DNA from: an uncultured Gammaproteobacteria bacterium
GTDB taxonomy: Bacteria > Patescibacteriota > Microgenomatia > Levybacterales > UBA12049
Reading direction: 5' to 3'
DNA: 64,000 bases
Assembly (NCBI GenBank): GCA_964372855.1
Contig: CAYJRY010000001.1
Span: 18,794-82,793 of the forward strand
Within the stretch, counting starts at the first letter, position 1, and each line of letters begins with the position of its first letter. This document shows positions 1-39,146 of this stretch, one piece after another. The translations under genes were made by a program, and so were the position numbers. The notes beneath the pieces were generated by a model, which did not search any database, was not told the DNA's origin, and saw only the letters and a program-made list of their open reading frames with translations.

Positions 1-149
1 TCTCAATGCTTCCAATGTACAAAACAAAAACAAATAATAAAATAGCCTACCGAGTTGGTCTTAATGGCATAAATCTTCCCAGTGGCGTTACACTTACTGA
101 AAAACAGGTGGATTATGTCTGTCAAATGATAAATAAGATTCTTAAATAG
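1..149 (+). CDS. Partial CDS (C-terminus only, runs off the window start): DegT/DnrJ/EryC1-family sugar aminotransferase-like tail
   Basis: The frame that is open from the window edge to a TAG at 147-149 translates ...GLNGINLPSGVTLTEKQVDYVCQMINKILK*. This resembles the typical C-terminal LP..P.LT.....YV...I motif of sugar aminotransferases. There is no upstream context. Confidence 0.4.
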   Translation, partial: SMLPMYKTKTNNKIAYRVGLNGINLPSGVTLTEKQVDYVCQMINKILK

Positions 150-179
150 TAATTACACTTAATTCTTTTAACAAATTAA

Positions 180-944
180 ATGAAAATTTTTCTCTTAGCA
201 AATAACTGGGTAGGTTTAGAAGTTGCAAAATATCTTACGAAAAGAAAAGAAAATATTGTCGCTTTAGGTATTGCACCTTTGGAAAAACAAAAATTTACTG
301 ATGAAATAACTAAAATTGTAAACCTTCCTAAAAGATTAATTTTTGACGGATCAACCTTACGAAATCCAACTGTTATTAGAAAGATAAAAAAACTTGCACC
401 AGATATTATTATTGGTGCATTTTGGGTTACAATTCTCAAACCCGAAATTATTAACATTCCACCAAAAGGTTGCATAAACCTTCACCCGGGTTACTTACCA
501 TACAATCGCGGAGTCAACCCAAATGTCTGGCCAATAATTGAAGGAACACCTGCAGGCGTTACTCTTCATTACATGGATTCCAACATTGATACCGGAGATA
601 TCATTGCAAGGAAAATTGTTCAGATAGAAGTTTATGATACAGCTGAAACATTATATAATAAAACGCTTGTTGAGATTGTAAAACTTTTTAAAGAACAATG
701 GCCGCTTATAAAGAAGGGCAAAAATGCCATTACTCCTCAATCTACCTTACGTGATAAACCAACATTTCATTTTGCAAAAGATTTAGAAAAATTAGATAAA
801 ATCGATCTAGATAAAAACTATACAGGACGTGATTTAATTAATACTATCAGATCTCGTTCATATAAAAATCGTTTTTTTGCATATTATCTGGATCATGGGA
901 AAAAAGTTTATATCCGTGTGGAATTGTCAGATAAAGATAAATGA
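180..944 (+). CDS. Formyltransferase-domain protein, likely a sugar N-formyltransferase
   Basis: 254 aa. It has an Fmt/PurN-like core with INLHPGYLPYNRGVNPNVWPII (the HxSLLPxxRG formyltransferase signature) and a DTGDII motif. The stop overlaps the next start (ATGA). Confidence 0.65.
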   Translation: MKIFLLANNWVGLEVAKYLTKRKENIVALGIAPLEKQKFTDEITKIVNLPKRLIFDGSTLRNPTVIRKIKKLAPDIIIGAFWVTILKPEIINIPPKGCINLHPGYLPYNRGVNPNVWPIIEGTPAGVTLHYMDSNIDTGDIIARKIVQIEVYDTAETLYNKTLVEIVKLFKEQWPLIKKGKNAITPQSTLRDKPTFHFAKDLEKLDKIDLDKNYTGRDLINTIRSRSYKNRFFAYYLDHGKKVYIRVELSDKDK

Positions 945-1762
945 AAGGTAATTCACGATTCACTAAAATTGCAAAGGAAATAAGAAAAAATATTTTGTTA
1001 ATGGCAAATCGCGCCAAAAGCGCTCATACTGGAGGCGCATTATCGTGTGTTGAAATTATGGTGGCCCTCTACTTTGAGATCATGCATGTATTTCCCAAAG
1101 ACTCTCAAAATCAAAAAAGAGACCGTCTCATTTTTAGCAAAGCCCACGATGCCAAGGTATTGTATGCAGTACTCTCTAAGCGTGGGTTTTTTGATAAAAG
1201 TATTTTACAAGGGTACGAAATGGATGGAGGTCTTTTACCTGGACACGCGACTCGTCATTGCGTTCCTGGCGTTGAGGCTTCTGCCGGTGCTTTAGGACAT
1301 GGATTGTCTATGGCAGCAGGGATCGCATATGCCGGAAAACTTGATAATAAAAAATTTCGAGTTTTTGCAGTTTTGTCTGATGGAGAATGCGATGAAGGAT
1401 CAACATGGGAAGCAGCGCTTTTTGCATCACACCATAAGTTAGATAACCTTGTTACTATTGTCGATTATAACAAACTACAAGGCTTCGGGTTTACAAAAGA
1501 CGTGCTAGAACTTGAGCCTTTTACAGACAAATGGAAAAGTTTTGGCTGGGATGTTAAAGAAATTAATGGTCACAGTTTTGATGAGATTATAACAACTTTT
1601 AAAACTATCCCTTTTACTCACAAAAAGCCCTCTGTAATTATTGCCCATACCATTAAAGGCTTAGGAGGTGTACCCGCTCATGTAAATCAAGTTTCCTCTC
1701 AATACAAATCACCAACAGATGAGGAAGCAAATGAAGCAATAAAAAACCTAGACAATATATGA
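941..1762 (+). CDS. tkt: Transketolase, N-terminal (TPP-binding) subunit of a split transketolase
   Basis: 273 aa. It carries HTGGALSCVEIMVALYF, GHATRHCVPGVEASAGALGHGLSMAAGIA and SDGECDEGSTWEAALFASHHKLDNL, the classic transketolase N-terminal motifs. There is a 4-bp overlap with the downstream partner. Confidence 0.85.
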   Translation: MKGNSRFTKIAKEIRKNILLMANRAKSAHTGGALSCVEIMVALYFEIMHVFPKDSQNQKRDRLIFSKAHDAKVLYAVLSKRGFFDKSILQGYEMDGGLLPGHATRHCVPGVEASAGALGHGLSMAAGIAYAGKLDNKKFRVFAVLSDGECDEGSTWEAALFASHHKLDNLVTIVDYNKLQGFGFTKDVLELEPFTDKWKSFGWDVKEINGHSFDEIITTFKTIPFTHKKPSVIIAHTIKGLGGVPAHVNQVSSQYKSPTDEEANEAIKNLDNI

Positions 1763-2676
1763 GAATTGCTTTTGTCAACACATTAATAGAACATGCAAAG
1801 CTTGATAAAAGGATTATGCTCTTAACAGGCGATCTTGGTTTTTCTGTATTTGAAAAATATATCGAAGAATTACCCATGCAATTCCTCAATATGGGTGTCG
1901 CAGAGCAGAATATGGCGGGTGTTGCTGCTGGATTAGCAATGGAAGGAAAGATTCCAATTATTTATTCTATTGTTCCTTTTACGACAATGAGGAATTTTGA
2001 GCAAATAAGAAACGATATCTGTTATCAAAACCTTAATGTTAAAGTTGTTGGTGTTGGCGCTGGATTTTCTTATGGGCCTTATGGGCACACACATCATGCC
2101 TTGGAAGATATAGGAATATTGCGGACATTACCAAACATGGTAATTCTGTGTCCTGGTGATCCTCAAGAAGTGATTGCAGCAACAAAGGAAACATTGCGCT
2201 ACGAAGGGCCTGTCTATCTAAGATTGGGAAAAGCAGGAGAGATGGTAATTCATAAAAACACACCATCTTTTTCTATTGGAAAGGGAATTGTTATTGAGAA
2301 AGGGTCAGATATTGCAATCATTGCAACTTCAACAATGGTTTATAGGGCGTGGGAAGTTGCCCAAAAATTAAAGGACAAAAATATATCAACACATCTTGTT
2401 AGCATGATTTCCATAAAGCCACTAGACACAAATGTTATTTTTGAATCTGTAAATAAGACAAAGGCAATTTTTACTATTGAGGAACATAGTGTTGTTGGCG
2501 GATTAGGCAGTGCTGTTGCGGAGGTTCTTTCCGAAAATAGAGCAAATGCGATTTTTAAAAGAATAGGTGTTCCAGATCGTTTTACCAAAGTAATAGGAAG
2601 TCAGGAATATATGAGGACAGCAAATGGACTTACTGTCGAACATATAGTTAATACTATTTTGGAAAGGCTCAAGTGA
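1759..2676 (+). CDS. tkt: Transketolase, C-terminal (pyrimidine-binding/C-terminal domain) subunit
   Basis: 305 aa. It carries MGVAEQNMAGVAAGLAMEGKIP and FSYGPYGHTHHALEDIGILRTLPNMVILCPGD. It is translationally coupled to the N-terminal subunit. Confidence 0.85.
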   Translation: MRIAFVNTLIEHAKLDKRIMLLTGDLGFSVFEKYIEELPMQFLNMGVAEQNMAGVAAGLAMEGKIPIIYSIVPFTTMRNFEQIRNDICYQNLNVKVVGVGAGFSYGPYGHTHHALEDIGILRTLPNMVILCPGDPQEVIAATKETLRYEGPVYLRLGKAGEMVIHKNTPSFSIGKGIVIEKGSDIAIIATSTMVYRAWEVAQKLKDKNISTHLVSMISIKPLDTNVIFESVNKTKAIFTIEEHSVVGGLGSAVAEVLSENRANAIFKRIGVPDRFTKVIGSQEYMRTANGLTVEHIVNTILERLK

Positions 2677-2742
2677 AAAATTATTCATTGATACTGTATA
2701 AATGCCAATCGGATAATATACCAACGTCAAAAAAGTGGTTTG

Positions 2743-3942
2743 TTAAGAAGAGGCTTTCTTAAGAAAAGATGTAAATACATCTTTCAGTCTGTCAAGGTTT
2801 TTCTTTTCAAGACCATGGTGACAACCGATTACAAAACCTCTTTCCATAATATCATCTGTGATTGGATATCCTGGGTTATTTGTCCTATGAGGAATCTTGT
2901 TAAAACCTGGTTGTCTTAAAATATTCCCAGTAAATATCGGACGTGTTTGTATATTGTTTTTTTCAAGAAAGGTCATTATTTCTAATCTTGAAAAAGGAGA
3001 GGATTTTCTAATCGTTAATGGAAAAGCGAGCCATTGAGTCCTACTATACTTATTTTGTTCGGGAAGAATAAAAAACTTTTCATACTTTTTAAAGAATTTT
3101 TTGAGTTCTGTGAAGTTTTTTTCTCTGATTTTTCTGAATTCCGGAAGTTTTTTAAGTTGGATATTTCCAAACGCAGAGCACATTTCATTTGGAAGAAAGT
3201 TATAGCCGATTTCGTTAAATATATATTTAGCATCATAAGGTATATTTCCGACTTTTATTTTAAATCGCTTATTAATATCTTCAGATTCATCAAAAATAGA
3301 CGAACTTCTTCCCCATCCTCTTAAAACTTTTGCTCTATCTCTCCATTCTTTTCTATTAATCAAGATCATTCCTCCATTTCCTCCGGCGGTTATTATATGT
3401 GAACCAAAAAAACTTGTTGTTGAGATGTCGGAATATGTTCCTGTCGGTTTTCCATTAACCTGTGCCCCAAGTGTATCGCAAGAGTCTTCGATAAAAATGA
3501 GATTATGTTTTTGAGCAATTTTTTTTAATTTTTCCATGTCGGGAATATTTCCAAGAAGTAGTGGAATCATAAGAACTTTTGTTTTTTTCGTAATGAGTTC
3601 TTCCACTTTATTGACATTTATAACATAGGTTCCGGCCTCTACATCCGCAAAGACAGGAATAAGTCCATGCTGAACAAGCGGCGCAACTGTTGTTGAAAAA
3701 GTCAAAAGAGGAGTAATTACTTCAGAACCCCTGGGAAGATTTAAAAGTTCAATTGCAAGGAAGTTTGCTGATGATCCGGAATTAACCATAACCCCATATT
3801 TTTTGCCAAAAAGTTTAGCGATACCTTTTTCAAAGATTTGAGTTTCAATTCCCATATTGGTTCTATGCTCTTTAAGAACCGCAACCACAGCTTGAATTTC
3901 TTCATCATCATAAACAGAAAGTGCGTATGGGACTCTTTGCAT
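2743..3942 (-). CDS. DegT-fold PMP-dependent sugar 3-dehydratase (ColD / E1-like), not a true aminotransferase
   Basis: 399 aa with a DegT/DnrJ fold (VMVNSGSSANFLAIELL, FIEDSCDTLGA). The position of the PLP lysine reads SFFGSHIITAGGNGG, with His in place of Lys. This is the hallmark of GDP-4-keto-6-deoxymannose 3-dehydratase (ColD) and the CDP-hexulose 3-dehydrase E1. The C-terminal RPIFTGNILRQ is also ColD-like. Confidence 0.65.
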   Translation of the reverse strand: MQRVPYALSVYDDEEIQAVVAVLKEHRTNMGIETQIFEKGIAKLFGKKYGVMVNSGSSANFLAIELLNLPRGSEVITPLLTFSTTVAPLVQHGLIPVFADVEAGTYVINVNKVEELITKKTKVLMIPLLLGNIPDMEKLKKIAQKHNLIFIEDSCDTLGAQVNGKPTGTYSDISTTSFFGSHIITAGGNGGMILINRKEWRDRAKVLRGWGRSSSIFDESEDINKRFKIKVGNIPYDAKYIFNEIGYNFLPNEMCSAFGNIQLKKLPEFRKIREKNFTELKKFFKKYEKFFILPEQNKYSRTQWLAFPLTIRKSSPFSRLEIMTFLEKNNIQTRPIFTGNILRQPGFNKIPHRTNNPGYPITDDIMERGFVIGCHHGLEKKNLDRLKDVFTSFLKKASS

Positions 3943-4157
3943 AGTAATGAGTATATCATGGAAGAGCTGTAATTACCAATTATCCGTAGCTTCATAGAAG
4001 TATGCGTCGATTTCGCGACTGGTTACTAGATTACTGGTTTGTATCCTGTAATTTCTGATACAATGCTTAATGTGTTGCATTGTCTTTTTATGAATTTTTC
4101 CAACATTTATAAAGGTTTCTTAGTCATCATTATTCTATTTAGTCATCTAGCGCAGCC
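3943..4157. promoter_or_regulatory. Divergent intergenic region, which probably holds promoters for the 3-dehydratase (-) and a GT2 gene (+)
   Basis: This 215-bp gap is the largest non-coding stretch in the window. It lies between divergently oriented start codons and contains AT-rich TATAAA-like hexamers. No specific operator was recognised. Confidence 0.3.
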
Positions 4158-5204
4158 ATGAAGAATTTACCAACAATTTCAATTGTCACTTGTCTATTTA
4201 ATAGCGAGTTAACTTTTTTTCGTGAGGGGCTTAAGTCCATTGCGAACCAACATTACCCCAAAAAATTAATTGAGCATATCGTTATGGATGGAGGTTCAAC
4301 AAATGGCTCAATGGAACTGGCAAAAAAATATGGTTGTAAGGTTTTTGTGCGAAAAGATCTTCTTCAGCAAGCAGAAATGCGTATTGCAATTGGAATAATG
4401 AAAGCGAAAAACGAACTTGTTCTCATACTTGAGGCAGACAATATTCTCACCTCTCGTGATTGGTTGATTCGAATGGTAGAACCTTTTTTGTCTGACAAAA
4501 GAGTATTTTGCACATATAGCGCTTACTATGGTTACAAGAAAAGTCTCCCGGCCACAACAAGATACTCTGCACTCTTTGGGGCTCCTGAACCGACAGTCTA
4601 CTATTTAAATAAAAATGAGAAGATCTCAATAGTCGATAAACTGTATGACAAAGGAGAAATATTAGAAGAAAGAGGAAATTATTTTATTGTTCGTTTCAAA
4701 AGAGATAATTTGCCTGTCTTGGGAGATAATGGAACTTTATTTTTAAGAAGTGCAATGAATAAAGTAAATATTAATCCTCAAGAGTATATTCATCCTGACG
4801 CGTTTGTAAAACTGCTAAACCTTGGATATGATACAGTTGGAGTTGTAAAAAATGATCTCATTCATATAGCTAATCCCAATATTTTCGGTATGGTAAAAGG
4901 GAAGTTATGGCTAAAGAAAGTTTATGATAATAAGCGTTACAAGAGAATATATTATGTTTTTACCTGGAGATCAAAAAAGGATCTTTTTAATCTTATGAAA
5001 TTTATTTTCTTTTCAATAACCATTATAATTCCAACCCTTGAAGCTATGCGAGGCTTTATAAAAATAAGAGATTGGGCATGGTTTTTGCATCCTGTTATTT
5101 GTCTAGCAATGTTTTTTGGTTATGGCTGGTCGGAAATTTTATGGATTGTAAGAGGAAAGATAGTTCGATTGGATAAAAATACTTTCACATCTTTACCTTT
5201 ATAA
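4158..5204 (+). CDS. GT2-family (GT-A fold) glycosyltransferase with a C-terminal membrane region
   Basis: 348 aa. It has an N-terminal ISIVTCLFNSE...IVMDGGSTNGS GT2 core with an acidic motif (LEADN). Hydrophobic C-terminal segments are present. Confidence 0.6.
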   Translation: MKNLPTISIVTCLFNSELTFFREGLKSIANQHYPKKLIEHIVMDGGSTNGSMELAKKYGCKVFVRKDLLQQAEMRIAIGIMKAKNELVLILEADNILTSRDWLIRMVEPFLSDKRVFCTYSAYYGYKKSLPATTRYSALFGAPEPTVYYLNKNEKISIVDKLYDKGEILEERGNYFIVRFKRDNLPVLGDNGTLFLRSAMNKVNINPQEYIHPDAFVKLLNLGYDTVGVVKNDLIHIANPNIFGMVKGKLWLKKVYDNKRYKRIYYVFTWRSKKDLFNLMKFIFFSITIIIPTLEAMRGFIKIRDWAWFLHPVICLAMFFGYGWSEILWIVRGKIVRLDKNTFTSLPL

Positions 5205-9041: not shown

Positions 9042-9710
9042 CTACCGTATGGTGAAAGGTACAGCTTTATTTTCGTTAACACTATGAGGACTTTCATCGT
9101 AAATGTTTTTAATTTTTGCGATCCAAGCAGCAATCATGTGATTAAGCACCAATTGTATATCCTCGATAGGACCATAATGATTGCTGTTGATAATAATTGA
9201 ATGGTTAACTAAACCCCCTAATTTTCCTCCAGTTTTAAAACCTAAAATCCCAATAGTTATTGCACCACATTCTTTCGCATATTCTATCGCTTTTACTACA
9301 TTTGGGCTATTGCCGCTTCCAGATAGAGCAATAACAATATCATCTGTTTCAACTAAATTACGAAGCTGTTGTACAAAAATGTCATCAAAACTTAGGTCGT
9401 TTGCAAAAGCAGTCATAATAGCAACATTATCGGTTAGGGAAATAACACGAAATCGTCTTTCTGTATTATCGTAAATTCGCTGCAATGTACCTTTTCCTAA
9501 GTCGCAGGCCATATGTGAAGCTGTGGATGCTGATCCACCATTTCCAATAATAAAAACTTTCCTGTCTTTTTTATATGCTGCGACTAATAAATCTATAATT
9601 ATTTCAATTTTGGTCGTATCGAGCGAGTCCAAGCATTTTTTAAGCTCCATAAGATACTCATTGATAAAATTTTTAGGATCTGGCATTTTGTGTATTATCT
9701 TTGTTTTCAC
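9042..9710 (-). CDS. gmhA: Sedoheptulose-7-phosphate isomerase (SIS domain), GmhA
   Basis: 222 aa. It carries VFIIGNGGSASTASHMACDL and ALSGSGNSPNV SIS motifs and has the typical GmhA length. Confidence 0.75.
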   Translation of the reverse strand: MKTKIIHKMPDPKNFINEYLMELKKCLDSLDTTKIEIIIDLLVAAYKKDRKVFIIGNGGSASTASHMACDLGKGTLQRIYDNTERRFRVISLTDNVAIMTAFANDLSFDDIFVQQLRNLVETDDIVIALSGSGNSPNVVKAIEYAKECGAITIGILGFKTGGKLGGLVNHSIIINSNHYGPIEDIQLVLNHMIAAWIAKIKNIYDESPHSVNENKAVPFTIR

Positions 9711-9711
9711 C

Positions 9712-10692
9712 TTAATCTATAAAAATAATTTTACTCCCTTGTTGTTCAAATAAAAGTTCTTGATAAACAAGTTCTGGAAGAGAATTAATAATTTTTGCAT
9801 GCTTTTCCTCAGGCGCATAAAAGAGCAAAAATCCTCCACCTCCTGCGCCTAAAAGTTTTCCTCCAATTGCTCCATTTTTTCGAGCAATTGTATACCATTT
9901 ATCTATTGTTGAATTAGATATTCCTTCCGCCATTTGCATTTTCAATAACCAATTTTCATGCAGCATCTCACCAAACGAATCAAGGTTGTTTTTATTAAGT
10001 GCTTTTTGCATTTCCTTAGTGATTCCTACCATTCTACTCATTAATTTACGTTTCTTTTTCTGGGAAGCCAAATTTCTTGTCTGTTTTGCCAAAATCGGAT
10101 TTGCAGATCTTGTAATACCAGTATAAAAGAGGAGTAATCTCTTCTCTAAAATTCTTTTTGTTTCTATTTTACATATAATAGGGTCCACATATACAGTCTC
10201 ATTTGGATTAAATTGCATATACTGAAAACCCCCATAAGCAGCTGCATACTGATCTTGTTTGCCAATAGGCTTATTTAATATATCTATTTCAATTTTACAT
10301 GCTTCTTTTGCCAACTTCTCAGCATTTACATGTTTACCTTGAAATGCATAAAGTGCATTCAAAAGACCCACAACATAAGAACTTGAAGATCCCATTCCCG
10401 TACCTTCGGATGGAATATCCGCAATTGAAGTAATGTGAATTCCTCCTTTTATCCCGGTTAGCTTTAGTGCTTCTCTTACAAGATTATTTTCAATATCTGA
10501 TACTCTACGAACAATTTCTGTTTTTGAATAATTAATGATAATTCTGCCATCAAATTGATTATTAACTGCTATGTAGACATATTTATTAATCGCTGTCGCA
10601 ACAACAGCACCAATATGCTTTTTATAAAAACTCGCAATATCACTCCCACCTCCCACAAAACTAATTCGAAGCGGTGTTCGCGAAATTATCAT
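9712..10692 (-). CDS. hddA: D-glycero-alpha-D-manno-heptose 7-phosphate kinase (GHMP kinase), HddA
   Basis: 326 aa. It has RTPLRISFVGGGSD at the N-terminus, GMGSSSS, and GKQDQYAAAYGGFQYMQF, which is near-identical to the HddA-type GHMP heptose kinase motif. GAGGGGF is also present. Confidence 0.8.
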   Translation of the reverse strand: MIISRTPLRISFVGGGSDIASFYKKHIGAVVATAINKYVYIAVNNQFDGRIIINYSKTEIVRRVSDIENNLVREALKLTGIKGGIHITSIADIPSEGTGMGSSSSYVVGLLNALYAFQGKHVNAEKLAKEACKIEIDILNKPIGKQDQYAAAYGGFQYMQFNPNETVYVDPIICKIETKRILEKRLLLFYTGITRSANPILAKQTRNLASQKKKRKLMSRMVGITKEMQKALNKNNLDSFGEMLHENWLLKMQMAEGISNSTIDKWYTIARKNGAIGGKLLGAGGGGFLLFYAPEEKHAKIINSLPELVYQELLFEQQGSKIIFID

Positions 10693-11867
10693 AAATACCT
10701 ACACGCTATATCATAAAGGCTTTTATTTATTGTGACCAAAAATGTCTTACAACCAGCACTTTTACCTGCTATCATATCACGCTCGTCATCTCCAATGCAA
10801 TAACTATTAAATAAATTTATATGATGCTTTGCTGCGGCTAAAAAAAATAAACCAGGATTTGGCTTTCGGCAAAAACAGCCTTCATCCCATCCGTGTCTAC
10901 AGATAAAAATATCTGCTATTTCACCACCATTTTTTTTAATTTCATTAAGCATATTAGTATGAATATTTCTCAACTCATCTTCCTGTAGCATTTTTCTTGC
11001 TATACCTGGTTGATTTGTAATAATAAAAACCATATATCCTTTTACCTTTAAGAGTTTTAATGCTTCTTTTGCTTTTGGTAAAAAATGAAATTCTTCCCAT
11101 TTTCTAACATATTGTGCTTTTGGTGGTTTTTCATTGATTGTTCCATCGCGGTCAAGAAAGATAATTTTTTTCTTTTTAAAAAATTCTTCAATGACTGGTA
11201 TCCTTTCTAAATTACTCAAGCTATAATACTTGTGATATGTTAAAAATCCAGCTAGTTGTTTTTGGGAAATAAGCTTAGGCAATACAGTAGTTTCAAACGA
11301 GCAATTCTCTTGGAGCAAAAAATCTATGACACTTTTTTTCAAAATAAAAAATCCTATATCCACACCATTGAGATTTTTTGCTTCTCTTTTTTTATCGTAT
11401 ACTTCAACAAGCCCTTCTGAATTTACGTATATATTATTTTTCGTGTAATTATCTAAATTACGATAAACGGTTATAAGACCAAGCGTACGTTTTTCTTTAT
11501 AAAATGATTCTAGATCGTTAAGCCTAAGCGGCCAATAATTATCTCCATATAAGAGAAGAAAATGCTTAGCAAAAAGTCGTGATGCATTTCTCAGGCGAGT
11601 TCCGGTATCTGCCTCTACCGGGTCATACGAATATGTAATTTTTAAACCAAACTTTTCCCCTTTACCGAAATATTCTTCAATCTGTTCATGCAGATATCCA
11701 ACTAAAATAATGACTTCCTCAATTCCATTTTTTTTCAAAAGCTCGAGAAGATATGCTAGAAAAGGCTTGCCATGAATTGGAATCATAGGCTTAGGCATAG
11801 TATTTGTTAGAGGCCTCATTCGAGTACCCAGACCGCCAGCTAAAATAACTGCTTGCTTAATTGTCAT
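10689..11867 (-). CDS. Bifunctional fusion of heptose-1-phosphate nucleotidyltransferase (HddC-like) and D,D-heptose 1,7-bisphosphate phosphatase (GmhB-like, HAD)
   Basis: 392 aa. The N-terminus AVILAGGLGTRMRPLTNTMPKPMIPI is an NTP-transferase. The C-terminal ~170 aa IIFLDRDGTIN...ITNQPGIARK...GDDERDMIAGKSAG is a GmhB-type HAD phosphatase. Confidence 0.75.
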   Translation of the reverse strand: MTIKQAVILAGGLGTRMRPLTNTMPKPMIPIHGKPFLAYLLELLKKNGIEEVIILVGYLHEQIEEYFGKGEKFGLKITYSYDPVEADTGTRLRNASRLFAKHFLLLYGDNYWPLRLNDLESFYKEKRTLGLITVYRNLDNYTKNNIYVNSEGLVEVYDKKREAKNLNGVDIGFFILKKSVIDFLLQENCSFETTVLPKLISQKQLAGFLTYHKYYSLSNLERIPVIEEFFKKKKIIFLDRDGTINEKPPKAQYVRKWEEFHFLPKAKEALKLLKVKGYMVFIITNQPGIARKMLQEDELRNIHTNMLNEIKKNGGEIADIFICRHGWDEGCFCRKPNPGLFFLAAAKHHINLFNSYCIGDDERDMIAGKSAGCKTFLVTINKSLYDIACRYL

Positions 11868-11873
11868 GTGAAA

Positions 11874-13103
11874 TTAAAGAACCTTAGGATTATTTGGTAA
11901 AGGCAAAATGAACGTACCTTTGTATTTATATTTATCATTAAGAGTTTTCATAATCTCATTTTTAAAATTCCACGCCAAGATTACAACAAGATGTGGATTT
12001 CTTTTCATTACTTTATCTGGGCTTTCGATTGGAATATGAGTACCAGCTGTAAATAATCCTTGCTTTAAAGGATTCTGGTCAGCAATTACTCTAATATATT
12101 TTGTATTTATACCACAATAATTAAGAAGCGTTGAACTTCTGGCTGAGGCGCCATAACCAACAATAACTTTATTTTTATTTTCATACAAAATTGCAAGTAA
12201 CTTTTCTTTGTGCATTTTAACTCTTTTTGTAAAATTCTCCCAAGCATTGAAAGTATTTAACATAATCTTTTTTTCAGCTTTTCTGTATTCTTCAACTATT
12301 GATGTTTCTTTAAGCTTTGTTTTTCTAATATAAATTACTAAGGATCCTCCACTTATCGGGCTTGTTGTAATATCTTCGATAAAAAGACCGTATCTATGTA
12401 ATAACTCTTCTAAACTCTTAATAGTAAAGTAACATAAATGTTCATGATAGATAGAGTCGTAATGAAGCTCTTGGTATATCTTTTTTGCGTAATGTATCTC
12501 AATTACCAACATGCCATCATTTGCAAGTACCATATGCATTCCTTTAATAAAACTATGAGTATCTTCCACATGAGGAAGCACGTTTCTTGCAAATATTACT
12601 CTTGCAGGTCCCATATCCTTTAGTATTCTTCTTGCAGATGATACGCCAAAAAATTCGCACCTTGTTGGTACACCAGCAGCGATTGCTTTTTCTACAATAT
12701 TTTTTGCTGGGTCAACTCCTAACACTGTATAACCGTTTTTTATAAAGGGAAGAAGAAATGTTCCATCGTTACTTGCTACCTCCAAAATATAACCTTTTTT
12801 ATTGTTTTTTAATCGATATATTATCTCTTTATAAAATACTTTGGCATGAATTCTTGCCGTGCTTGAGGTGCCTGTAACCCAGACATAATTTGAAAATAGA
12901 TCCTTGGGATTTGGAGTATGGTTTAGTTGTACCAAACTACAATTTTCACAATAGCTTAATGACAAAGGATAAAAATTCTCTTTATCGTTTGGACTTTTTA
13001 AGAGGGAATTTGCGTATGGCTGATGACCTAAGTCCAAAAACTCCTTAATCTTTCTAGTTTTACAAATACGGCATGAGTCAATTCTTTTCATTAACAAAAT
13101 CAA
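11874..13103 (-). CDS. NDP-sugar C-methyltransferase-family protein (Zn-ribbon + SAM MTase + C-methyltransferase C-domain architecture)
   Basis: 409 aa. The N-terminal CRIC...(36 aa)...CENC four-Cys putative zinc-binding domain is followed by an LGHQPYANSLL motif. It has a central MTase (ILEVASNDGTFLLPF) and a long C-terminal domain. This is the architecture of the TylC3/NovU-type sugar C-methyltransferases. Confidence 0.6.
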   Translation of the reverse strand: MILLMKRIDSCRICKTRKIKEFLDLGHQPYANSLLKSPNDKENFYPLSLSYCENCSLVQLNHTPNPKDLFSNYVWVTGTSSTARIHAKVFYKEIIYRLKNNKKGYILEVASNDGTFLLPFIKNGYTVLGVDPAKNIVEKAIAAGVPTRCEFFGVSSARRILKDMGPARVIFARNVLPHVEDTHSFIKGMHMVLANDGMLVIEIHYAKKIYQELHYDSIYHEHLCYFTIKSLEELLHRYGLFIEDITTSPISGGSLVIYIRKTKLKETSIVEEYRKAEKKIMLNTFNAWENFTKRVKMHKEKLLAILYENKNKVIVGYGASARSSTLLNYCGINTKYIRVIADQNPLKQGLFTAGTHIPIESPDKVMKRNPHLVVILAWNFKNEIMKTLNDKYKYKGTFILPLPNNPKVL

Positions 13104-13111
13104 AGTATATC

Positions 13112-14083
13112 CTAAGCTTGTTGATTAGCATTTTGAGTAGTAACTTGGTATAAATTTTTATTTTTTTTAAACCAATCTATTGTTTTTGTAAGACCTTCCT
13201 CTATTGTATTTCTTTGTTTCCATTTAAGAACCATTTTCATTTTTGAAACATCTGCTTCCCAACGTGAAGGCTCAATATATCTGGCTTGCTTTGCCACAGT
13301 TCCCCATTGTACATTAGATTTACTTTTTGTAATTTTTTGTATCATTTGTACTATTTCCCCCACTGAGTGTTGCTTACCACTTCCAATGTTGTATATCTCT
13401 CCATATTCATGTTTTAACTCTACAGCATGCAGATATGCATCTATAACGTCATCTATAAAGATAAAATCGCGAACAAAAACTGGGTTAGAAACTCTAATTG
13501 GATTTCCTTCTAAAGCACTTAAAACCACAGATGGAATAAGGCGATTTTTTCCTTCAAAATATCCATAGGGAGTAAATAAGCGGAAATTGATTATGGGTAA
13601 TTTATTTCTTATAGCCTCTTTCTGACAATAGAGAGTAATTACTGATTTTATAACACCATTATTATTTACAGGTTTTAGTAGATCCGTCTCTCGCATAGGC
13701 GTTTCTTTAACTCCATATTCATCTCCGCTACTTGTGTTAATAAATAACTTAAATGGATTTTCCTTAACAGCATCAAGTAGATTTATTGTCCCTTTTAGAT
13801 TAATATCTATCATTTTATATATGTCATCTTCTTCCGGTAAGTTTCCGTATCTGGCTAAATGAAAGATATAGTCTGGTGATATTTTTTTAACTATTGTATG
13901 CAATTTTTTATCTTGAATATCACATTCGTAAATATGTATTTTGTCATAGACATCATGCAATCTCCAATTTAATTTTTTGTCTCTAACAATTACATGTGTC
14001 TTTTGGCCCTGTTTTATTAACTCTCTAATCAAATTAGCTCCAATGAATCCAGTTGCACCAGTAACAAGAAAAGTATTTTTCAT
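13112..14083 (-). CDS. NAD(P)-dependent sugar epimerase/reductase (extended SDR), candidate 4-keto reductase/epimerase
   Basis: 323 aa. It has a GATGFIGANL Rossmann motif. It sits next to the Gmd-like dehydratase. Confidence 0.6.
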   Translation of the reverse strand: MKNTFLVTGATGFIGANLIRELIKQGQKTHVIVRDKKLNWRLHDVYDKIHIYECDIQDKKLHTIVKKISPDYIFHLARYGNLPEEDDIYKMIDINLKGTINLLDAVKENPFKLFINTSSGDEYGVKETPMRETDLLKPVNNNGVIKSVITLYCQKEAIRNKLPIINFRLFTPYGYFEGKNRLIPSVVLSALEGNPIRVSNPVFVRDFIFIDDVIDAYLHAVELKHEYGEIYNIGSGKQHSVGEIVQMIQKITKSKSNVQWGTVAKQARYIEPSRWEADVSKMKMVLKWKQRNTIEEGLTKTIDWFKKNKNLYQVTTQNANQQA

Positions 14084-14085
14084 TT

Positions 14086-15069
14086 TTAATAAAGGCCTTT
14101 TTCAACAAAATTTCGCCAATATACCAAAACATCGTCAATAATATTTTCAAAAGATAGCTTTTGTGTCCAACCAGTTGCTTCGTAAAATTTGCTTGAATCT
14201 CCTATAACAACAGCTTCATTTGTAGCGCGAATAAATTTCTCCATTATCTTATGTTTTATTTTCCCTTTAAATACAGATTTCTTAATCAGACTTTTTATTG
14301 CATCATCAAATGTACCAATGTTTTCCCTTTTATCAGAACCGACCAAGTAAGCTTCTGGCTTGCAGTGTTCTAAAGCCAACCAATACGCCTCAACTATATC
14401 TTTTACATGGATGAAATTACGTTTTGCCGATACATACCCACTTTGTAAAATTGGTTTTTGTAATCCTTTTTCGATTCGAGCAATCTGGTAAGCATACCAT
14501 GGAAGACCGAATATGTAATCTCGTCTTGGTCCTTCTATATTAAAAGCCCGCGTACGAACAACATGAAGACCATATGTTTTGTGATAGACATAACCAATAT
14601 AATCTTGTGCTATTTTTGACACTGCATACGGATTTAAAGGATTAAGTGGGGTCTCTTCTTTCATGGGTAAATATTCTTTGGGAATATCACCATACATTGC
14701 TACACTACTTGCAATAAGTATTTTTGCAGTTTTATTTGCAATTCTTACTGCTTCCAAAAGGTTGAGAGTTCCTTTATAATTTACATCCATATAGTGACTT
14801 GGGTGAGTCCATGATGGACCAAGTCCACTTTCTGCAGCAAAGTGAAAAATTTTTGTCGGTTTTATTTTTTCAATAATACTTCCTATTCCTATTGGATCTG
14901 TTAAATCGCAATCAAGGAATTCTATCTTAGAAAGTATATGTGCAACATTTCGAAGCCTGGATAAATTCCATCGTTTTAATCCATACACCTTAACACCTTT
15001 ACTCAAAACATAATCGGCCATGTGAGAGCCAACAAAACCGGTAATACCTGTGATGAGAACTTTTTCCAT
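14086..15069 (-). CDS. GDP-mannose 4,6-dehydratase family (Gmd/DmhA-like) NDP-sugar 4,6-dehydratase
   Basis: 327 aa. It has VLITGITGFVGSH and RAFNIEGPRRDYIFGLPWYAYQIARIEKGLQ...SAKRNFIHVKDIVEAYWLALEH. This closely follows the Gmd signature FNHESPRRG...[25 protein letters not shown]. Confidence 0.7.
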   Translation of the reverse strand: MEKVLITGITGFVGSHMADYVLSKGVKVYGLKRWNLSRLRNVAHILSKIEFLDCDLTDPIGIGSIIEKIKPTKIFHFAAESGLGPSWTHPSHYMDVNYKGTLNLLEAVRIANKTAKILIASSVAMYGDIPKEYLPMKEETPLNPLNPYAVSKIAQDYIGYVYHKTYGLHVVRTRAFNIEGPRRDYIFGLPWYAYQIARIEKGLQKPILQSGYVSAKRNFIHVKDIVEAYWLALEHCKPEAYLVGSDKRENIGTFDDAIKSLIKKSVFKGKIKHKIMEKFIRATNEAVVIGDSSKFYEATGWTQKLSFENIIDDVLVYWRNFVEKGLY

Positions 15070-15179
15070 ACTTTCTATTCTACATTTTATGAGAAATGTT
15101 AATTCTCTATACGTGAATAATAATTCATATCAAGTAATTCAATTTAAAACAGACTATTGGTATTTACGGATCGATCAGT

Positions 15180-15881
15180 TTATACCTTTATGATAAGGCA
15201 CTGTGATCCTGATAGTTCAACAATCGTTTCTGGTTTGTCTTTAAAAAATTCATCAAATGCCTTGCTTACACCTCCTATTGTCATATAATCATGAGAGAGA
15301 ATTATTCCTCCTTTACTCATTCGGGGATAAAAGAACTTAAGAGAGTCAAGTGTACTTTTGTATAAATCAACATCCAGATGTACAAATGAGAATCGTTTAT
15401 TTTCAATAGGGGCAGCTGTTTGAGGAAATATTCCTTTATAGAAATAGACCCTTTTTTCGCTCTTCAAATATACTTTTACTTCTTCAAATAAGAGATTAAA
15501 TCTACCTTTGTAGAATTCGGGATCATCATACTCTGTTGTATCTGGTAATCCATCAAAGGTGTCAAATAAATAGAGATTTTTCTTCCCTTTAAATTGGGAT
15601 ATAATTTTTGCGGTTCCTCCTTTAAATACGCCCACTTCTGCAACATCCCCAGGAATTTTTTGAGTATTTTTAACAAGCATTGCTATTGAATACGCTTCAT
15701 TATACGTAACCCAAGTTTCCCGTTCTTTTTTAATTCTTGTAATCAGATCAAACGTTGATATACTTTTTTTGTTATTATATCTTATGAGTACAAAACGTTT
15801 TGAAACAAGAGTGTTCGCGACGCTTTCAAAAAAAATGTCTCGAAAAAAACTAAGAATGTGAGATAGTCCTTTTTCTTCCAT
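15180..15881 (-). CDS. TylF/MycF-family (macrocin O-methyltransferase-like) SAM-dependent sugar O-methyltransferase
   Basis: 233 aa. It has VAEVGVFKGGTA, LFDTFDGLP and VHLDVDLYKST...GGIILSHDY, the characteristic TylF-family motifs. Confidence 0.65.
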   Translation of the reverse strand: MEEKGLSHILSFFRDIFFESVANTLVSKRFVLIRYNNKKSISTFDLITRIKKERETWVTYNEAYSIAMLVKNTQKIPGDVAEVGVFKGGTAKIISQFKGKKNLYLFDTFDGLPDTTEYDDPEFYKGRFNLLFEEVKVYLKSEKRVYFYKGIFPQTAAPIENKRFSFVHLDVDLYKSTLDSLKFFYPRMSKGGIILSHDYMTIGGVSKAFDEFFKDKPETIVELSGSQCLIIKV

Positions 15882-34113: not shown

Positions 34114-35244
34114 TCACTTATGCTTTAAGTTAAATGCACTTAGACCAAGAAGAGGAATAAGAAAGGTAAAATACGCGTGAGTTGTCCATTGGCTTAGTAC
34201 TAGATAAATAAACATAATTACTCCTGAGGCTACAAAAACTTTATTAAATGAATCAAATCTAAAATATCGAAATAAAAAAAATACTGTAGCAAGACTACCT
34301 ATGGTTCTAACTCCCCACATTTGCTCTGTTGAAAAAGTAATATGTAACGTGTCTTTTAGAAAAACCCATATATTCCATCCCCATATTGTATGCCAGTTTG
34401 TCAATTCTATAAAAGAAATACTACGAAAAAATCCTTGAGGCGCAAATAAAATAAAAGGTCCTGAAACAATAATAATGGTCAATAAAAAATGAAAAATGTA
34501 GCGCTTGTTTGAAATTGGCAAAAGGTTTTTATTCTGGTAAATGTATGGAATAAAAAATAGCAGGTAAAAAAATACGTGGTGCTTGAAAGATGCTGCAAAC
34601 CCTAAGATTATTGCGCTTAGAATAGCATAAAAACGGCTTTTATTATTAACCGAGTAAATAAATAGTATTATTGATAAAAGTAAAATAAATATTGTACTAT
34701 TATCATTACTTCCATCAGCTGATAAATCGATTAAAAATGGCGTTAAAGACACAACAGCAAACAAAGGTAATATTTTCATAGTTTTTAAAATCCTTCCGTA
34801 GATAAGTATCAAAACTGGCACAAAAGATGAAACAAGCATCTCAAAAAAACGCAAATCAATATTTAAAATATATGCGGGTAAATACCAAAAGAGGCTAAAT
34901 GGCAAATAGGTAAAAGGGGTTAATCCACTTTGTGCCATAATCATTTCCTTATAGACATTTTTTCCATTAACGAAATAACCAATATAATCACGAACTGCCA
35001 TCAGAGCATCGGATCCATATGTGGAGGTATGATATTGAATTATTCTACCTAAAGTGCCAAAAATTAATAGATATAATATGAGAGGGTAAAAAGATTTCTT
35101 AAAATGGAACAGTAGAATAAAAAGCGGCATTAAGGCAAGAGCTACAATAAAAAGCCAGTCAGCGCTATTGTGCACAATTAAAACAAAGCTGACAATAATT
35201 GTTGTCCAAAAAATCCACTCTTTATCGTTTTGATTTCTTCCCAT
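34114..35244 (-). CDS. Polytopic membrane protein, DUF2029/GT87-like GT-C candidate
   Basis: 376 aa, about 10 TM. The GSDALMAVRDYIGYFVNGKNVY loop resembles that of 30994-32130. Confidence 0.35.
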   Translation of the reverse strand: MGRNQNDKEWIFWTTIIVSFVLIVHNSADWLFIVALALMPLFILLFHFKKSFYPLILYLLIFGTLGRIIQYHTSTYGSDALMAVRDYIGYFVNGKNVYKEMIMAQSGLTPFTYLPFSLFWYLPAYILNIDLRFFEMLVSSFVPVLILIYGRILKTMKILPLFAVVSLTPFLIDLSADGSNDNSTIFILLLSIILFIYSVNNKSRFYAILSAIILGFAASFKHHVFFYLLFFIPYIYQNKNLLPISNKRYIFHFLLTIIIVSGPFILFAPQGFFRSISFIELTNWHTIWGWNIWVFLKDTLHITFSTEQMWGVRTIGSLATVFFLFRYFRFDSFNKVFVASGVIMFIYLVLSQWTTHAYFTFLIPLLGLSAFNLKHK

Positions 35245-35512
35245 ATTTTTTGATCAACAGACTATATTATAACATCGTATACTGTAAAACACTATGAAAT
35301 AAAGTGTTGCTTGAGATACAAATTTGGCCTTTGTTGTTATCGAAGTATCTTTAAACTTTACCTCGATTTGATGTTTGTCTGGAGTCTCGTTAAATTAAAT
35401 TATCTTATCAGAATCTGATCCTGCTGTTAATTTTTTTGATCAATAAATACGTTCCATCCAGGAATATAAGCGATATTAACTATTATATTTGATTTCGAAA
35501 AAAACAGAAACT

Positions 35513-36760
35513 TTACATAAGTGCTTGTATTCCAAGTATGTGTAAAAATATTGCCATTGCTATACCTAGAAGGTAAAAAGGGTTGATTTTTCCTTTTATC
35601 CCAAGAATAGAAAGCAATAGAAGTAATACTGTAATATCAAGGGAATACCTGTAACCAAACTGCATCCAACCAGTGCTGTAAATCATAAGAGATGGCAACA
35701 TTACAATAATTGCCGTTAACCAAAGTGAAAAAAGATAAGGATTGACAGTAAATTTTTTCTTAATTTTTGTAATGGGTATTGCTAAATATGCCGTAAGAAA
35801 TGGGAGTGTTAAAATAAAAATAGAATTACCATTTAAGTTGAAATCAAGTGAAAATTTTCCATTAATAAAACGAAGCTGTGGAGATTCAAAAAGCATATAC
35901 CAAAGGTTATTAGGGATATGAAAAATAGATACAGCCCCTTTTGCTTGCCTTATTTCCGCAAGATACGGTGACTCTTGAATGTAAGTATAACCGTATTCAA
36001 AGACGGTTCCAAATCGAAAGTAGTTATAAAGGAAAAAAAGTATGCTAAAAAATCCAAGGGGTAGACCAAAAATAACAATTGCCTTTAAAAATGCATATGC
36101 CTTTTTTTTAACTGATCCTTTCGATACAATAAAATGTTCCCACAGATATAAGAATCCAGGAAGGAGAACGAAAAAAACAATTGTTGGCCTACCAATTAGA
36201 GCAACACTAAAAACAAGCGTGCTGAAGAAATAATCCCATATTGATCTATGCTTTTTAAAAACGATATATGTTCCAAACACGCCCAAAAATGTTGTTACCA
36301 TTTGATCAACATGCCAAGAACTTCCCAGCGTCCCTACATAAAAGTGTGTTGTCCCAAAAGTAAAAAGTATTATGAATAAGAAAATGTTTCTCTGAGTAAG
36401 AAGAGGAAGAAATTCTTTTTTAACTCGCTGTAACAACAGATAGACAATAACTACATTGAGACTTGCAAAAAATATGGTAAGGTATATTGTAGGAACAAAC
36501 CTTTGTTTTATAAGCTGCAAGGGAATTAAAAAAATTGCCGAAAGCACTCCCCACGGGGCATACCACTTATCTTTATACTCAATAAGATCATAGGTATCTA
36601 TAGGATTTTGTATATCAAGACGAAGTTGCAAAATGGATTTTGCCAGTGGATTAAAATGATCATGGGCCCATTTTGGCTTAAATGAATACTGCGTTGAAAC
36701 TGCAAAATAAACAATAAATGTAACAAAAAAAATACCCAAACAATAGAAAAACTTTTTCAT
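35513..36760 (-). CDS. Polytopic membrane protein, uncharacterised GT-C-like/polymerase-like
   Basis: 415 aa. It has more than 10 hydrophobic helices. No catalytic motif was recognised. Confidence 0.3.
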   Translation of the reverse strand: MKKFFYCLGIFFVTFIVYFAVSTQYSFKPKWAHDHFNPLAKSILQLRLDIQNPIDTYDLIEYKDKWYAPWGVLSAIFLIPLQLIKQRFVPTIYLTIFFASLNVVIVYLLLQRVKKEFLPLLTQRNIFLFIILFTFGTTHFYVGTLGSSWHVDQMVTTFLGVFGTYIVFKKHRSIWDYFFSTLVFSVALIGRPTIVFFVLLPGFLYLWEHFIVSKGSVKKKAYAFLKAIVIFGLPLGFFSILFFLYNYFRFGTVFEYGYTYIQESPYLAEIRQAKGAVSIFHIPNNLWYMLFESPQLRFINGKFSLDFNLNGNSIFILTLPFLTAYLAIPITKIKKKFTVNPYLFSLWLTAIIVMLPSLMIYSTGWMQFGYRYSLDITVLLLLLSILGIKGKINPFYLLGIAMAIFLHILGIQALM

Positions 36761-36763
36761 ATC

Positions 36764-38380: not shown

Positions 38381-38564
38381 AGAAATCTGGCGGAGAAAAA
38401 GAAAAAAGCTCTTTTAATTTTTGAACTGGCAAATGATAATTACCAGCTAGTATGTGCGGTATATATTGAAGAAGTAATCCAAATGAAAAAGTAAAACCTA
38501 TCTTTAATAGATATTTTTTTGCGTCACAAGTACAATAAAGCTTAGAAACCATATTGCATGCCAA
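38346..38564 (-). pseudogene. C-terminal remnant of a paralog of the 30994-32130 membrane protein
   Basis: The 72-aa ORF ...KYLLKIGFTFSFGLLLQYIPHILAGNYHLP aligns with the tail of 30994-32130 (RKFLLAISISLSLGLLLRYIPFMLTGIYDDK). It occupies the same position relative to a secreted-protein paralog. Confidence 0.45.
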
Positions 38565-38609
38565 AAATATATTTCTTCTCTTATTGAAGCAAGAAGAAAA
38601 TAGATTTTT

Positions 38610-39125
38610 TCATATATTATCCCTTATTGAAATCGCTTCCTCAATAGACTTATGCAGATAAAGTACTGTTGGCAGATCTTTCTCCGGTTCCCATTTAAAG
38701 GTATTTGGCACTTTTGATCGAATATTATTTAACACTTCCCGATGTTTTTGTACTGCACTTTTAAGTATTTTCTCTTTTTCAGTGATATCTCTTCCTTCAT
38801 TTTTTGACATCAGTAAATGCGGTTGGATATTCCCAAAGTAGAAATCAGATTTTTTTAATGCATTGTATCCTAATAAATATTGTTTGTATTCAAATAGTGT
38901 TTTTGCTTCAACCAAGTAATTGTCTGATTGATCTAGATTGTATTTAAACTGACCAAAATTTCCAAAAAACCAGTATTTTTTGAATTCATCCCATATCATT
39001 TTAACTTCATAGAACCTATTTCCTGGCATGACAGATGGATAAGGCAAAACATAACTTGATTCGGCGTAAACAGATGATGACATGGCTAAAATTAAAAATA
39101 AAAACAATACTAGAATCTTTTTCAT
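38610..39125 (-). CDS. Secreted/signal-peptide protein of unknown function (paralog S2)
   Basis: 171 aa. It has the signal peptide MKKILVLFLFLILAMSSSVYA. The mature region is about 55% identical to 32127-32645. Confidence 0.45.
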   Translation of the reverse strand: MKKILVLFLFLILAMSSSVYAESSYVLPYPSVMPGNRFYEVKMIWDEFKKYWFFGNFGQFKYNLDQSDNYLVEAKTLFEYKQYLLGYNALKKSDFYFGNIQPHLLMSKNEGRDITEKEKILKSAVQKHREVLNNIRSKVPNTFKWEPEKDLPTVLYLHKSIEEAISIRDNI

Positions 39126-39146
39126 TTTGAGTTAGGAATTATTTTT

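Follow-up and report, generated by a model that had tools for sequence, protein, structure and literature searches.

A split transketolase-type enzyme in a patescibacterial glycan locus and its possible role in branching nucleotide-activated keto-sugars

The 64,000-nucleotide stretch of DNA considered here (hereinafter, the window) covers positions 18,794 to 82,793 of contig CAYJRY010000001.1, assembly GCA_964372855.1, titled as an uncultured Gammaproteobacteria bacterium and placed by GTDB in Levybacterales (Patescibacteriota; Microgenomatia). With a G+C content of ca. 31%, it is occupied almost exclusively by glycan and envelope genes, e.g., glycosyltransferases of families 2 (GT2), 4 (GT4) and GT-C/PMT_2, flippases, methyltransferases, sugar dehydratases, and a heptose module. 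At its left edge lies a plus-strand operon comprising the tail of an aminotransferase gene, an N-formyltransferase gene, and two open reading frames (ORFs) homologous to the N- and C-terminal halves of transketolase. This pair is the subject of the present analysis; the coordinates of all features are collected in Table 1.

The two ORFs represent the two halves of one split transketolase-type enzyme dependent on thiamine diphosphate (ThDP). The N-half also matches the NCBIfam transketolase profile PRK05899.2-5 (7e-71, profile positions 17-281 of 627), and its match to Transketolase_N (2e-34) far exceeds that to E1_dh (1.6e-4, below the cutoff). The C-half scores alike against DXS (TIGR00204, 1.9e-58) and transketolase (PRK05899.2-5, 1.2e-57). 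The nearest solved structures belong to the split transketolase of Carboxydothermus hydrogenoformans (ChTK): 6YAK chain N for the N-half (1e-61) and 6YAJ for the C-half (7e-66). The reading of 941-2676 as translationally coupled transketolase halves, put forward in the earlier note, is borne out by the exact ORF boundaries, the Pfam domains, and the ATGA overlap of the N-half stop with the C-half start at 1759-1762. A similar ATGA, at 941-944, joins the formyltransferase stop to the N-half start. The co-orientation with the formyltransferase and aminotransferase genes proposed in the same note also stands, and co-transcription with glycan genes is supported by these overlapping start and stop codons. 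A promoter/terminator scan of positions 1-4300 gave no terminator-like site between the formyltransferase gene and the two halves, although the scan returned fewer matches than shuffled sequence and is hence uninformative. The aminotransferase tail is 79% identical to residues 323-369 of a 371-aa DegT aminotransferase in the related locus L001 (related loci bear handles of this form), which sits just before the formyltransferase there and is best matched by LegC/PseC-type 4-aminotransferases. The best NCBIfam match of the formyltransferase is dTDP-4-amino-4,6-dideoxyglucose formyltransferase (2.8e-36).

For a comparison of the active site, the pair and 31 relatives from the related loci were aligned to ChTK, human transketolase, and E. 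coli DXS, the residues being mapped by sequence alignment only. They are cited in what we take to be the E. coli numbering, the yeast and human numbering being assumed likewise. The cross-check used four residues mentioned in PMC5073344 and PMC7661550, namely L382, L466, D469, and R520. The equivalents of the cofactor- and donor-side residues His26, His66, His100, Asp155, Asn185, Glu411, and His473 are all kept, and the donor-side histidine motifs SAH, SKAH, PGH, and THH persist in at least 90% of the 31 family members. The ThDP/metal motif is present (SDGECDEG...DYNKLQ), as is VAEQN with the cofactor-activating Glu411; canonical transketolases from Candidate Phyla Radiation (CPR) bacteria likewise have SDG. 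The N-half family is further recognizable by SAHxGG, SKAHD, GHxxR, LGHGL, SDGECDEG, and DxNKLQ.

The residues contacting the substrate, which in canonical transketolases hold the sugar-phosphate donor and acceptor, have a different fate. Arg91 is replaced by Glu in 32 of 32 sequences (“YE” where the canonical enzymes have “FR”) and His261 by Gln in 30 of 32 (“SSQYK” for “EWHG”), both in the N-half. In the C-half, the family-wide motif GVGAGFSYGPYGHTHH places Gly at the position of His461 and Tyr at that of Asp469, two residues kept by ChTK, by the sampled canonical CPR sequences, and by 109 of 120 canonical matches. The E. coli enzyme pairs Asp469 with Arg91 in a salt bridge, and non-natural acceptors gain access to the site once Asp469 is replaced (PMC5073344); in the window family, both partners are changed. 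At the same time, two residues that bind phosphate in canonical transketolases, Arg358 (C-half Arg2, MRIAF) and Ser385 (C-half Ser29, GDLGFS), are retained. The position of Arg520 holds Lys in the window (RLGK) and Lys or Arg across the family, as read in an ungapped register from the GP motif, with the exact equivalence dependent on structure; an invariant Arg stands three residues before it, as in ChTK and DXS. Judging by the aligned residues, the substrate pocket of the pair differs from that of canonical transketolase, and the cofactor site is intact.

When 1.84 billion cluster representatives (50% identity clusters) were scanned in full with the C-half, 2,398 of them matched at E<=1e-30, a count that includes canonical transketolases, the canonical CPR copies scoring ca. 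1e-73 to 1e-80. Among the nearest 150 representatives, Gly461 was found in 131 and Asp469 in only 7, and His473 was universal (150/150). Neighbour joining of 144 C-halves (DXS as the root, no support values) placed all 42 His/Asp sequences, i.e., ChTK, a Lutibacter copy, and 40 canonical matches, in one exclusive clade. All 95 Gly461 sequences fell within a separate clade of 99 leaves, inside which the window family makes up a Gly/Tyr subclade of 35 leaves. The pair thus lies outside the canonical transketolase clade. Homologues of the N-half with 66-82% identity are abundant in Levy-, Gottesman-, and Woesebacteria. The signature of the larger clade comprises GHG in place of GQG, Gly461, a residue other than Asp at 469, and the loss of Arg91. 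It is conceivable, if slightly short of an even chance in our estimate, that the pair represents a large clade, as yet unrecognised, of split enzymes of the transketolase fold, whose normal task in Patescibacteria, Chloroflexota, and further phyla is the branching of nucleotide-activated keto-sugars.

Canonical split transketolases, retaining Arg91, His261, His461, and Asp469, occur in Patescibacteria, including a metagenome-assembled genome labelled Woesebacteria. They are 40-42% identical to the window C-half and reside in a conserved GatB–DnaE–TK-N–TK-C–Fpg–SecA–SerRS block (L041, 5127-6972; JGI 3300042731 contig). In a published complete Microgenomates genome, a class I aldolase gene shares its operon with the transketolase genes (PMC7143001). 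Could the pair nevertheless be the sole housekeeping transketolase of its organism, serving the non-oxidative pentose-phosphate shunt and residing in a glycan locus incidentally? This seems very improbable given the canonical copies in the DnaE–SecA block of related Patescibacteria, the loss of four canonical substrate residues, and the preservation of a sugar-nucleotide neighbourhood of the window type even in Dehalococcoidales. The window itself harbors no pentose-phosphate genes over its entire 64 kb.

The neighbourhood of the pair was followed in four Pfam-annotated loci and 27 loci of GTDB species representatives (56-76% identity); the contigs were scanned for synteny with patterns from the window's own sequence (e.g., HTHHALED), which canonical copies are unlikely to match. 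In all loci examined, the neighbours are glycan genes. The four-nucleotide overlap of the halves recurs in 21 of the 27 loci. A dehydrase of the E1 type lies within 10 kb in 19 of them and within 1 kb in 13. A nucleotidyltransferase was found nearby in 14 loci, best matched by glucose-1-phosphate cytidylyltransferase (TIGR02623, 1e-70 to 1e-75, under the curated cutoff), and a 4,6-dehydratase in 15, its best model being that for CDP-glucose (TIGR02622), just barely ahead of the dTDP-glucose dehydratase model. At least one of the three (E1-type dehydrase, transferase, dehydratase) is present in 22 of 27 loci. In about 10 of the 27 (including L011, L015, L022, L027, L030, L031, and L034), the start of the N-half is overlapped by the gene of an extended short-chain reductase. 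More distant members with Gly461 (a groundwater Patescibacterium, Dehalococcoidales; L038, L039) show the order transferase–dehydratase–(reductase)–TK-N–TK-C, accompanied by glycosyltransferase genes and one of the E1 type; the Dehalococcoidales locus encodes a 442-aa E1 with the cysteine motif. In a Harrisonbacteria locus, the halves are located apart among genes of the sugar dehydratase/epimerase type, and no E1-type gene was seen there. The Planctomycetota locus L036 was kept out of the context reading due to noisy ORF calls at high GC. In L034, the N-half is divided into ORFs 9186-9533 and 9537-10004, indicative of either a frameshift or stop (a pseudogene) or an assembly error.

The same counts bear on the reading preferred in the earlier note, where the pair was regarded as a locus-resident transketolase supplying sedoheptulose-7-phosphate to GmhA. 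The heptose module does lie within the window, at ca. 6.4 kb from the pair (the note had it at about 6 kb) and on the other strand. A working transketolase could make sedoheptulose-7-phosphate, or another ketose phosphate such as octulose phosphate, for its GmhA, GHMP kinase, phosphatase, and nucleotidyltransferase. No transaldolase is present in the window module, where the nucleotidyltransferase and the HAD phosphatase form one fused protein (10689-11867). The closest relatives encode a 221-aa transaldolase (TAL_FSA) within the HAD/SIS/GHMP-kinase “heptose” module (L001, 11517-14250; L003, likewise L011, 17784-20689 in L003; L008, 9525-12460), so central-carbon enzymes can be locus-resident. 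The set of HAD, SIS, GHMP-kinase, and transaldolase genes resembles the lincomycin octose genes LmbR/N/P/K/O, and its product may be an octose. The retention of Arg358 and Ser385 along with the Lys at the Arg520 position would also suit a ketose phosphate, and a fusion of the two kinds of domain is known elsewhere: P0256 (509 aa, on a 28-kb contig) joins a transketolase C-half to an SIS domain of the GmhA-like phosphoheptose-isomerase type. Judging from this sequence, a transketolase dedicated to heptose synthesis probably exists in nature. However, P0256 keeps His461 and Asp469, i.e., the canonical pocket, which counts against a sedoheptulose supply by the window pair. The pair has lost Arg91, His261, His461, and Asp469, lies outside the canonical clade, and is coupled to formyltransferase and dehydrase genes on the strand opposite to the heptose genes. 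Only 2 of the 27 loci have heptose genes (GmhA or GHMP kinase) at a distance of up to 10 kb vs. 19 with the E1 dehydrase; of the 14 loci flanked by 5 kb or more on either side, 11 contain the E1 gene and 1 the heptose genes. Overall, a supply of ketose phosphate appears quite improbable, if a little less so than the housekeeping function. The earlier interpretation is thus only partly supported: the sedoheptulose-7-phosphate supply is not, and context and active site favour the alternative offered alongside it, in which the pair transfers a two-carbon branch onto a keto-sugar, its chemistry being inferred.

The gene adjoining the pair is convergent to the C-half at a distance of 66 bp and encodes a putative 3-dehydrase of NDP-4-keto-6-deoxyhexoses, with Yersinia E1 as its best PDB match (3BCX, 2.5e-73). 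Not singled out in the earlier note, it belongs to the DegT family but is of the RfbH/E1 type and no aminotransferase, with RfbH/E1 as the best matches and the catalytic His of SFFGSH replacing the PLP-binding Lys. This motif aligns with SFYPAH of E1, containing His220 (3BB8 being the H220K mutant). The [2Fe-2S] motif (the C-x-C-x7-C region) is absent: the E1 segment DCYCAPGCDNTC aligns with SSSIFDESED-I, all cysteines being replaced, and the window protein has three Cys in total. Two E1 paralogues share the slot beside the C-half, one of 433 aa with the Fe-S cysteines and one of ca. 400 aa without them. The former keeps DCWCDTGKDNTC, is co-directional with the C-half, often overlaps its stop, and lies directly downstream of it in 13 other species-level loci. 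The latter, which retains SF[FY]GSH, is convergent to the C-half in the window, L001, L008, L009, L025, and L029, and co-directional at ca. 2 kb from it in L038. A ColD-like, reductase-independent mechanism of the cysteine-less subfamily is suggested because all [2Fe-2S] cysteines have been lost. The idea that the pair donates electrons to E1 in place of the E3 reductase was also rejected, the window E1 having no Fe-S site and the transketolase halves no redox cofactor motif.

Taken together, C–C bond formation in nucleotide-sugar synthesis is a quite probable general role of the pair. A more specific proposal, to which we give an even chance, is that it adds a ketol to C4 of a CDP-keto-sugar in a yersiniose-like pathway, the transketolase-fold enzyme standing in the position of YerE. 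In this pathway, glucose-1-phosphate would be converted to CDP-glucose and 4,6-dehydrated by enzymes whose genes are placed just left of the window by synteny with L001, L002, and L008. The adjacent E1/ColD-like dehydrase would then remove the 3-hydroxyl to yield CDP-4-keto-3,6-dideoxyhexose. The pair, presumably an alpha2beta2 assembly, would load a two-carbon ketol from a ketose phosphate or hydroxypyruvate onto ThDP and add it to the C4 ketone, yielding a 4-C-branched sugar, a tertiary alcohol whose branch is hydroxyacetyl. The branch carbonyl may be reduced by the short-chain reductase encoded beside the N-half in many related loci, and the branched sugar may be transferred into a surface glycan by the GT2 enzyme. 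The latter is a candidate for this step because it travels with the module, its orthologues (79-82% identity) coming after the E1-like gene in L001, L003/L011, and L008.

Acceptor, donor, branch position, and product are what we infer here, guided by several residues. The kept histidines, which bind the donor hydroxymethyl, favour a dihydroxyethyl-ThDP (ketol) intermediate and hence a hydroxyacetyl branch. The sugar-1-diphosphate could be held by Arg358 and Ser385 together with the basic residue at the position of Arg520. Since Asp469 and Arg91 read the alpha-hydroxyl of the acceptor, their loss would fit an acceptor deoxygenated at the neighbouring carbon.

The same family and pathway may operate with other chemistry. 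The pair might resemble DXS or pyruvate dehydrogenase E1 and decarboxylate pyruvate, the unit added being acetyl (hydroxyethylidene), as with YerE; a hydroxyacetyl unit might be added and its 2'-hydroxyl then removed by the adjacent E1-type dehydrase, leaving an acetyl branch; or a 4-keto-6-deoxy sugar might serve as the substrate before or without 3-deoxygenation. The C-half fits DXS as well as transketolase, L022 and L034 hold only transferase, dehydratase, reductase, and transketolase genes with no E1, and the overlap of the C-half and E1 genes in many loci would suit consecutive steps on the branch. Jointly, these versions are nevertheless unlikely, although less remote than the supply of ketose phosphate. 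The equivalent of His100 is conserved; in transketolases, this residue takes part in holding the hydroxymethyl group of the donor, and it is not known to have a counterpart in DXS. The N-half sides with Transketolase_N rather than E1_dh, and ChTK refuses pyruvate (PMC7661550).

Several circumstances weigh against the proposed addition of a ketol to a CDP-keto-sugar. The residue mapping was done by sequence alignment, with assumed numbering. The action on a keto-sugar is proposed by analogy, and that of the Streptomyces precedents is itself a proposal. In the window, no reductase gene adjoins the pair, and the aminotransferase and formyltransferase encoded in the operon would compete for the same 4-keto intermediate; hence, the locus may make two sugars from one precursor. 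The genes of the CDP-glucose type lie outside the window and are deduced from loci with N-halves 74-82% identical, and the CDP assignment itself reflects best-scoring matches under curated cutoffs in those related loci. About six loci have no E1 gene nearby (L013, L014, L022, L027, and L034, with several kb of flank, and the short L010), implying that 3-deoxygenation is non-obligatory or that the gene is elsewhere; in these loci, the pair remains coupled to the genes of a GT2 enzyme and of a large membrane protein. Finally, in five related loci, YerE-like ThDP genes of the acetolactate-synthase type (593-595 aa) occur along with the pair, and in L026 such a gene overlaps the C-half stop, so that two ThDP-dependent C–C enzymes are encoded in one sugar operon. 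The two are hence not redundant there; the pair is no simple substitute for YerE and may carry out a different C–C step.

Fusions and further ThDP genes were recorded along with the pair. P0129 (658 aa) contains a non-canonical C-half (Gly461/Leu469) fused to a zinc alcohol dehydrogenase; judging by its domains, this may be the ligase–reductase pairing expected for branch formation, similar to YerE/YerF. P0223 (654 aa) joins a transketolase C-half to a methyltransferase domain. In L003 (Levyibacteriota, CP066685.1), a gene resembling pyruvate dehydrogenase E1-alpha (PF00676) lies beside a second module of short-chain dehydrogenase/reductase (SDR), GHMP-kinase, and SIS genes (1-178 with 175-2774); sugar-branching ThDP enzymes of a third type may thus be encoded in that genome. 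Loci L008, L010, L012, L018, L021, L024, L026, L027, L030-L032, and L034 come from GTDB records titled “uncultured Gammaproteobacteria bacterium” (TPA, binchicken co-assemblies). These titles look wrong, as the loci are 56-76% identical to, and syntenic with, those of Levy- and Gottesmanbacteria.

As for the rest of the window, a sugar C-methyltransferase, two SDRs (one similar to GDP-mannose dehydratase), and a TylF-type O-methyltransferase are encoded at 11874-15881 beside the GDP-heptose genes, suggesting a methylated 6-deoxyheptose with no relation to the transketolase operon. From ca. 5.2 kb on, all long ORFs but one (54407-56923) are on the minus strand, and the cumulative GC skew falls steadily from ca. 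6 kb to the window end. Some of the long ORFs have no Pfam match (e.g., 34114-40310, 44206-45714, and 59069-61054), and neither tRNA genes nor Rfam matches were found in the window.

Table 1. Features of the window and of related loci (positions are those of the window or, where a handle is given, of the respective locus)
Feature	Location	Positions	Strand	Basis or remark
DegT-family sugar aminotransferase, C-terminal 48 residues	window	3..146	+	gene truncated by the left window edge
Sugar N-formyltransferase	window	180..944	+	PF00551 6.5e-25; PF18216 (N-formyltransferase C-terminal domain) 4e-12
Transketolase N-half, ThDP diphosphate-binding (PP) domain, 273 aa	window	941..1762	+	PF00456 Transketolase_N 2e-34
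Transketolase C-half, Pyr and transketolase C-terminal domains, 305 aa	window	1759..2676	+	PF02779 Transket_pyr 1.9e-30; PF02780 Transketolase_C 1.1e-28
Putative E1/RfbH-like (ColD-like) PMP-dependent NDP-4-keto-6-deoxyhexose 3-dehydrase	window	2743..3942	-	NCBIfam RfbH 1.6e-107
Family-2 glycosyltransferase (GT2)	window	4158..5204	+	PF00535 6.8e-13
Heptose module: GmhA, GHMP kinase, NTP-transferase/HAD fusion	window	9042-11867	opposite to the transketolase pair	ca. 6.4 kb from the pair
Cysteine-less E1 relative	L001	5348-6562		
Cysteine-less E1 relative	L008	3386-4582		
Cysteine-less E1 relative	L009	3326-4540		
Cysteine-less E1 relative	L025	10902-12110		
Cysteine-less E1 relative	L029	10907-12133		
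Cysteine-less E1 relative	L038	11099-12319		
YerE-like gene	L020	6118-7905		
YerE-like gene	L023	4389-6374	-	
YerE-like gene	L026	10918-12699		
YerE-like gene	L029	4488-6281	-	
YerE-like gene	L030	2981-4762		

If confirmed, the proposed function would have several implications. It would add a third widespread enzymatic solution for the synthesis of branched-chain sugars and predict that uncultured bacteria, including CPR, whose envelope chemistry is almost unknown, have surface glycans with unusual deoxysugars bearing a hydroxyacetyl or dihydroxyethyl branch. ThDP enzymes accepting ketones and yielding chiral tertiary alcohols are sought after, and the family would offer a large, diverse set of natural candidates with a recognisable active-site signature. 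There is also a consequence for annotation: homology pipelines would call these genes “transketolase”, and the label could pass as evidence of a pentose-phosphate shunt in reduced genomes, where some of such calls would then refer to enzymes of another kind. The combination of Glu91, Gly461, and a residue other than Asp at 469 makes a simple filter.

Among the known systems, ChTK (6YAK/6YAJ; PMC7661550) is the closest in architecture. It likewise carries the PP domain in one chain, with Pyr and transketolase C-terminal domains in the other, in an alpha2beta2 assembly, shares ca. 50% identity by eye over both halves, and has the same cofactor-binding and donor-side histidines. Still, ChTK is a working transketolase with Arg91, His261, His461, and Asp469, where the window pair has Glu, Gln, Gly, and Tyr, belongs to another clade, and is encoded in a nucleotide-sugar operon. 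DXS has the same fold and aligns with the C-half end to end, but it is a single chain with Asp where the window has Tyr, and no isoprenoid genes were found near the window pair.

ThDP-dependent branching of sugars is already known. In yersiniose synthesis, as known from Yersinia, DdhA, DdhB, and DdhC (E1) are followed by YerE, which attaches two carbons at the C4 ketone of CDP-4-keto-3,6-dideoxyglucose, and by YerF, carrying out the reduction (PMC12247030). YerE of Yersinia pseudotuberculosis, together with ErwE and JanthE, directs a ThDP carbanion onto a C4 ketone, which is the job proposed for the window pair. However, YerE is a single-chain member of the decarboxylase/acetolactate-synthase superfamily using 2-keto acids, and the window enzyme is a two-chain protein of the transketolase fold lacking the YerE domain order TPP_enzyme_N/M/C (single chain of ca. 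590 aa); true YerE-like proteins (PF02776, PF00205, PF02775) are encoded by separate genes in L020 and L026. The E1 alpha/beta pairs of the aldgarose, kibdelomycin (KbDH-alpha/beta), and avilamycin type similarly distribute PP and Pyr/TKC between two chains and branch keto-sugars to tertiary alcohols, but they are members of the E1_dh family with pyruvate as the donor, whereas the window N-half belongs to Transketolase_N.

The transketolase-fold version of this chemistry has so far been advanced only as a hypothesis, from Streptomyces antibiotic clusters. According to section 2.3 of PMC12247030, the split transketolases of miharamycin and amipurimycin synthesis are proposed to move a hydroxyacetyl group onto a keto sugar, and, as summarized there, genome mining (Krug et al. 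2024) gave 13 further candidates in Streptomycetes, none characterised in vitro. Literature searches on transketolase in O-antigen or sugar-nucleotide pathways yielded nothing other than the 2025 review, and transketolase-fold branching in surface-glycan loci or outside Streptomyces is undescribed in the literature searched. Compared by the description given in that section, the Streptomyces enzymes share with the window pair the split form and the proposed transfer of hydroxyacetyl to a keto sugar, but they are known solely from secondary-metabolite clusters of Streptomycetes and act on nucleoside-type sugars. In contrast, the window family is found in surface-glycan loci of Patescibacteria and Chloroflexota, beside genes of the CDP-deoxyhexose type.

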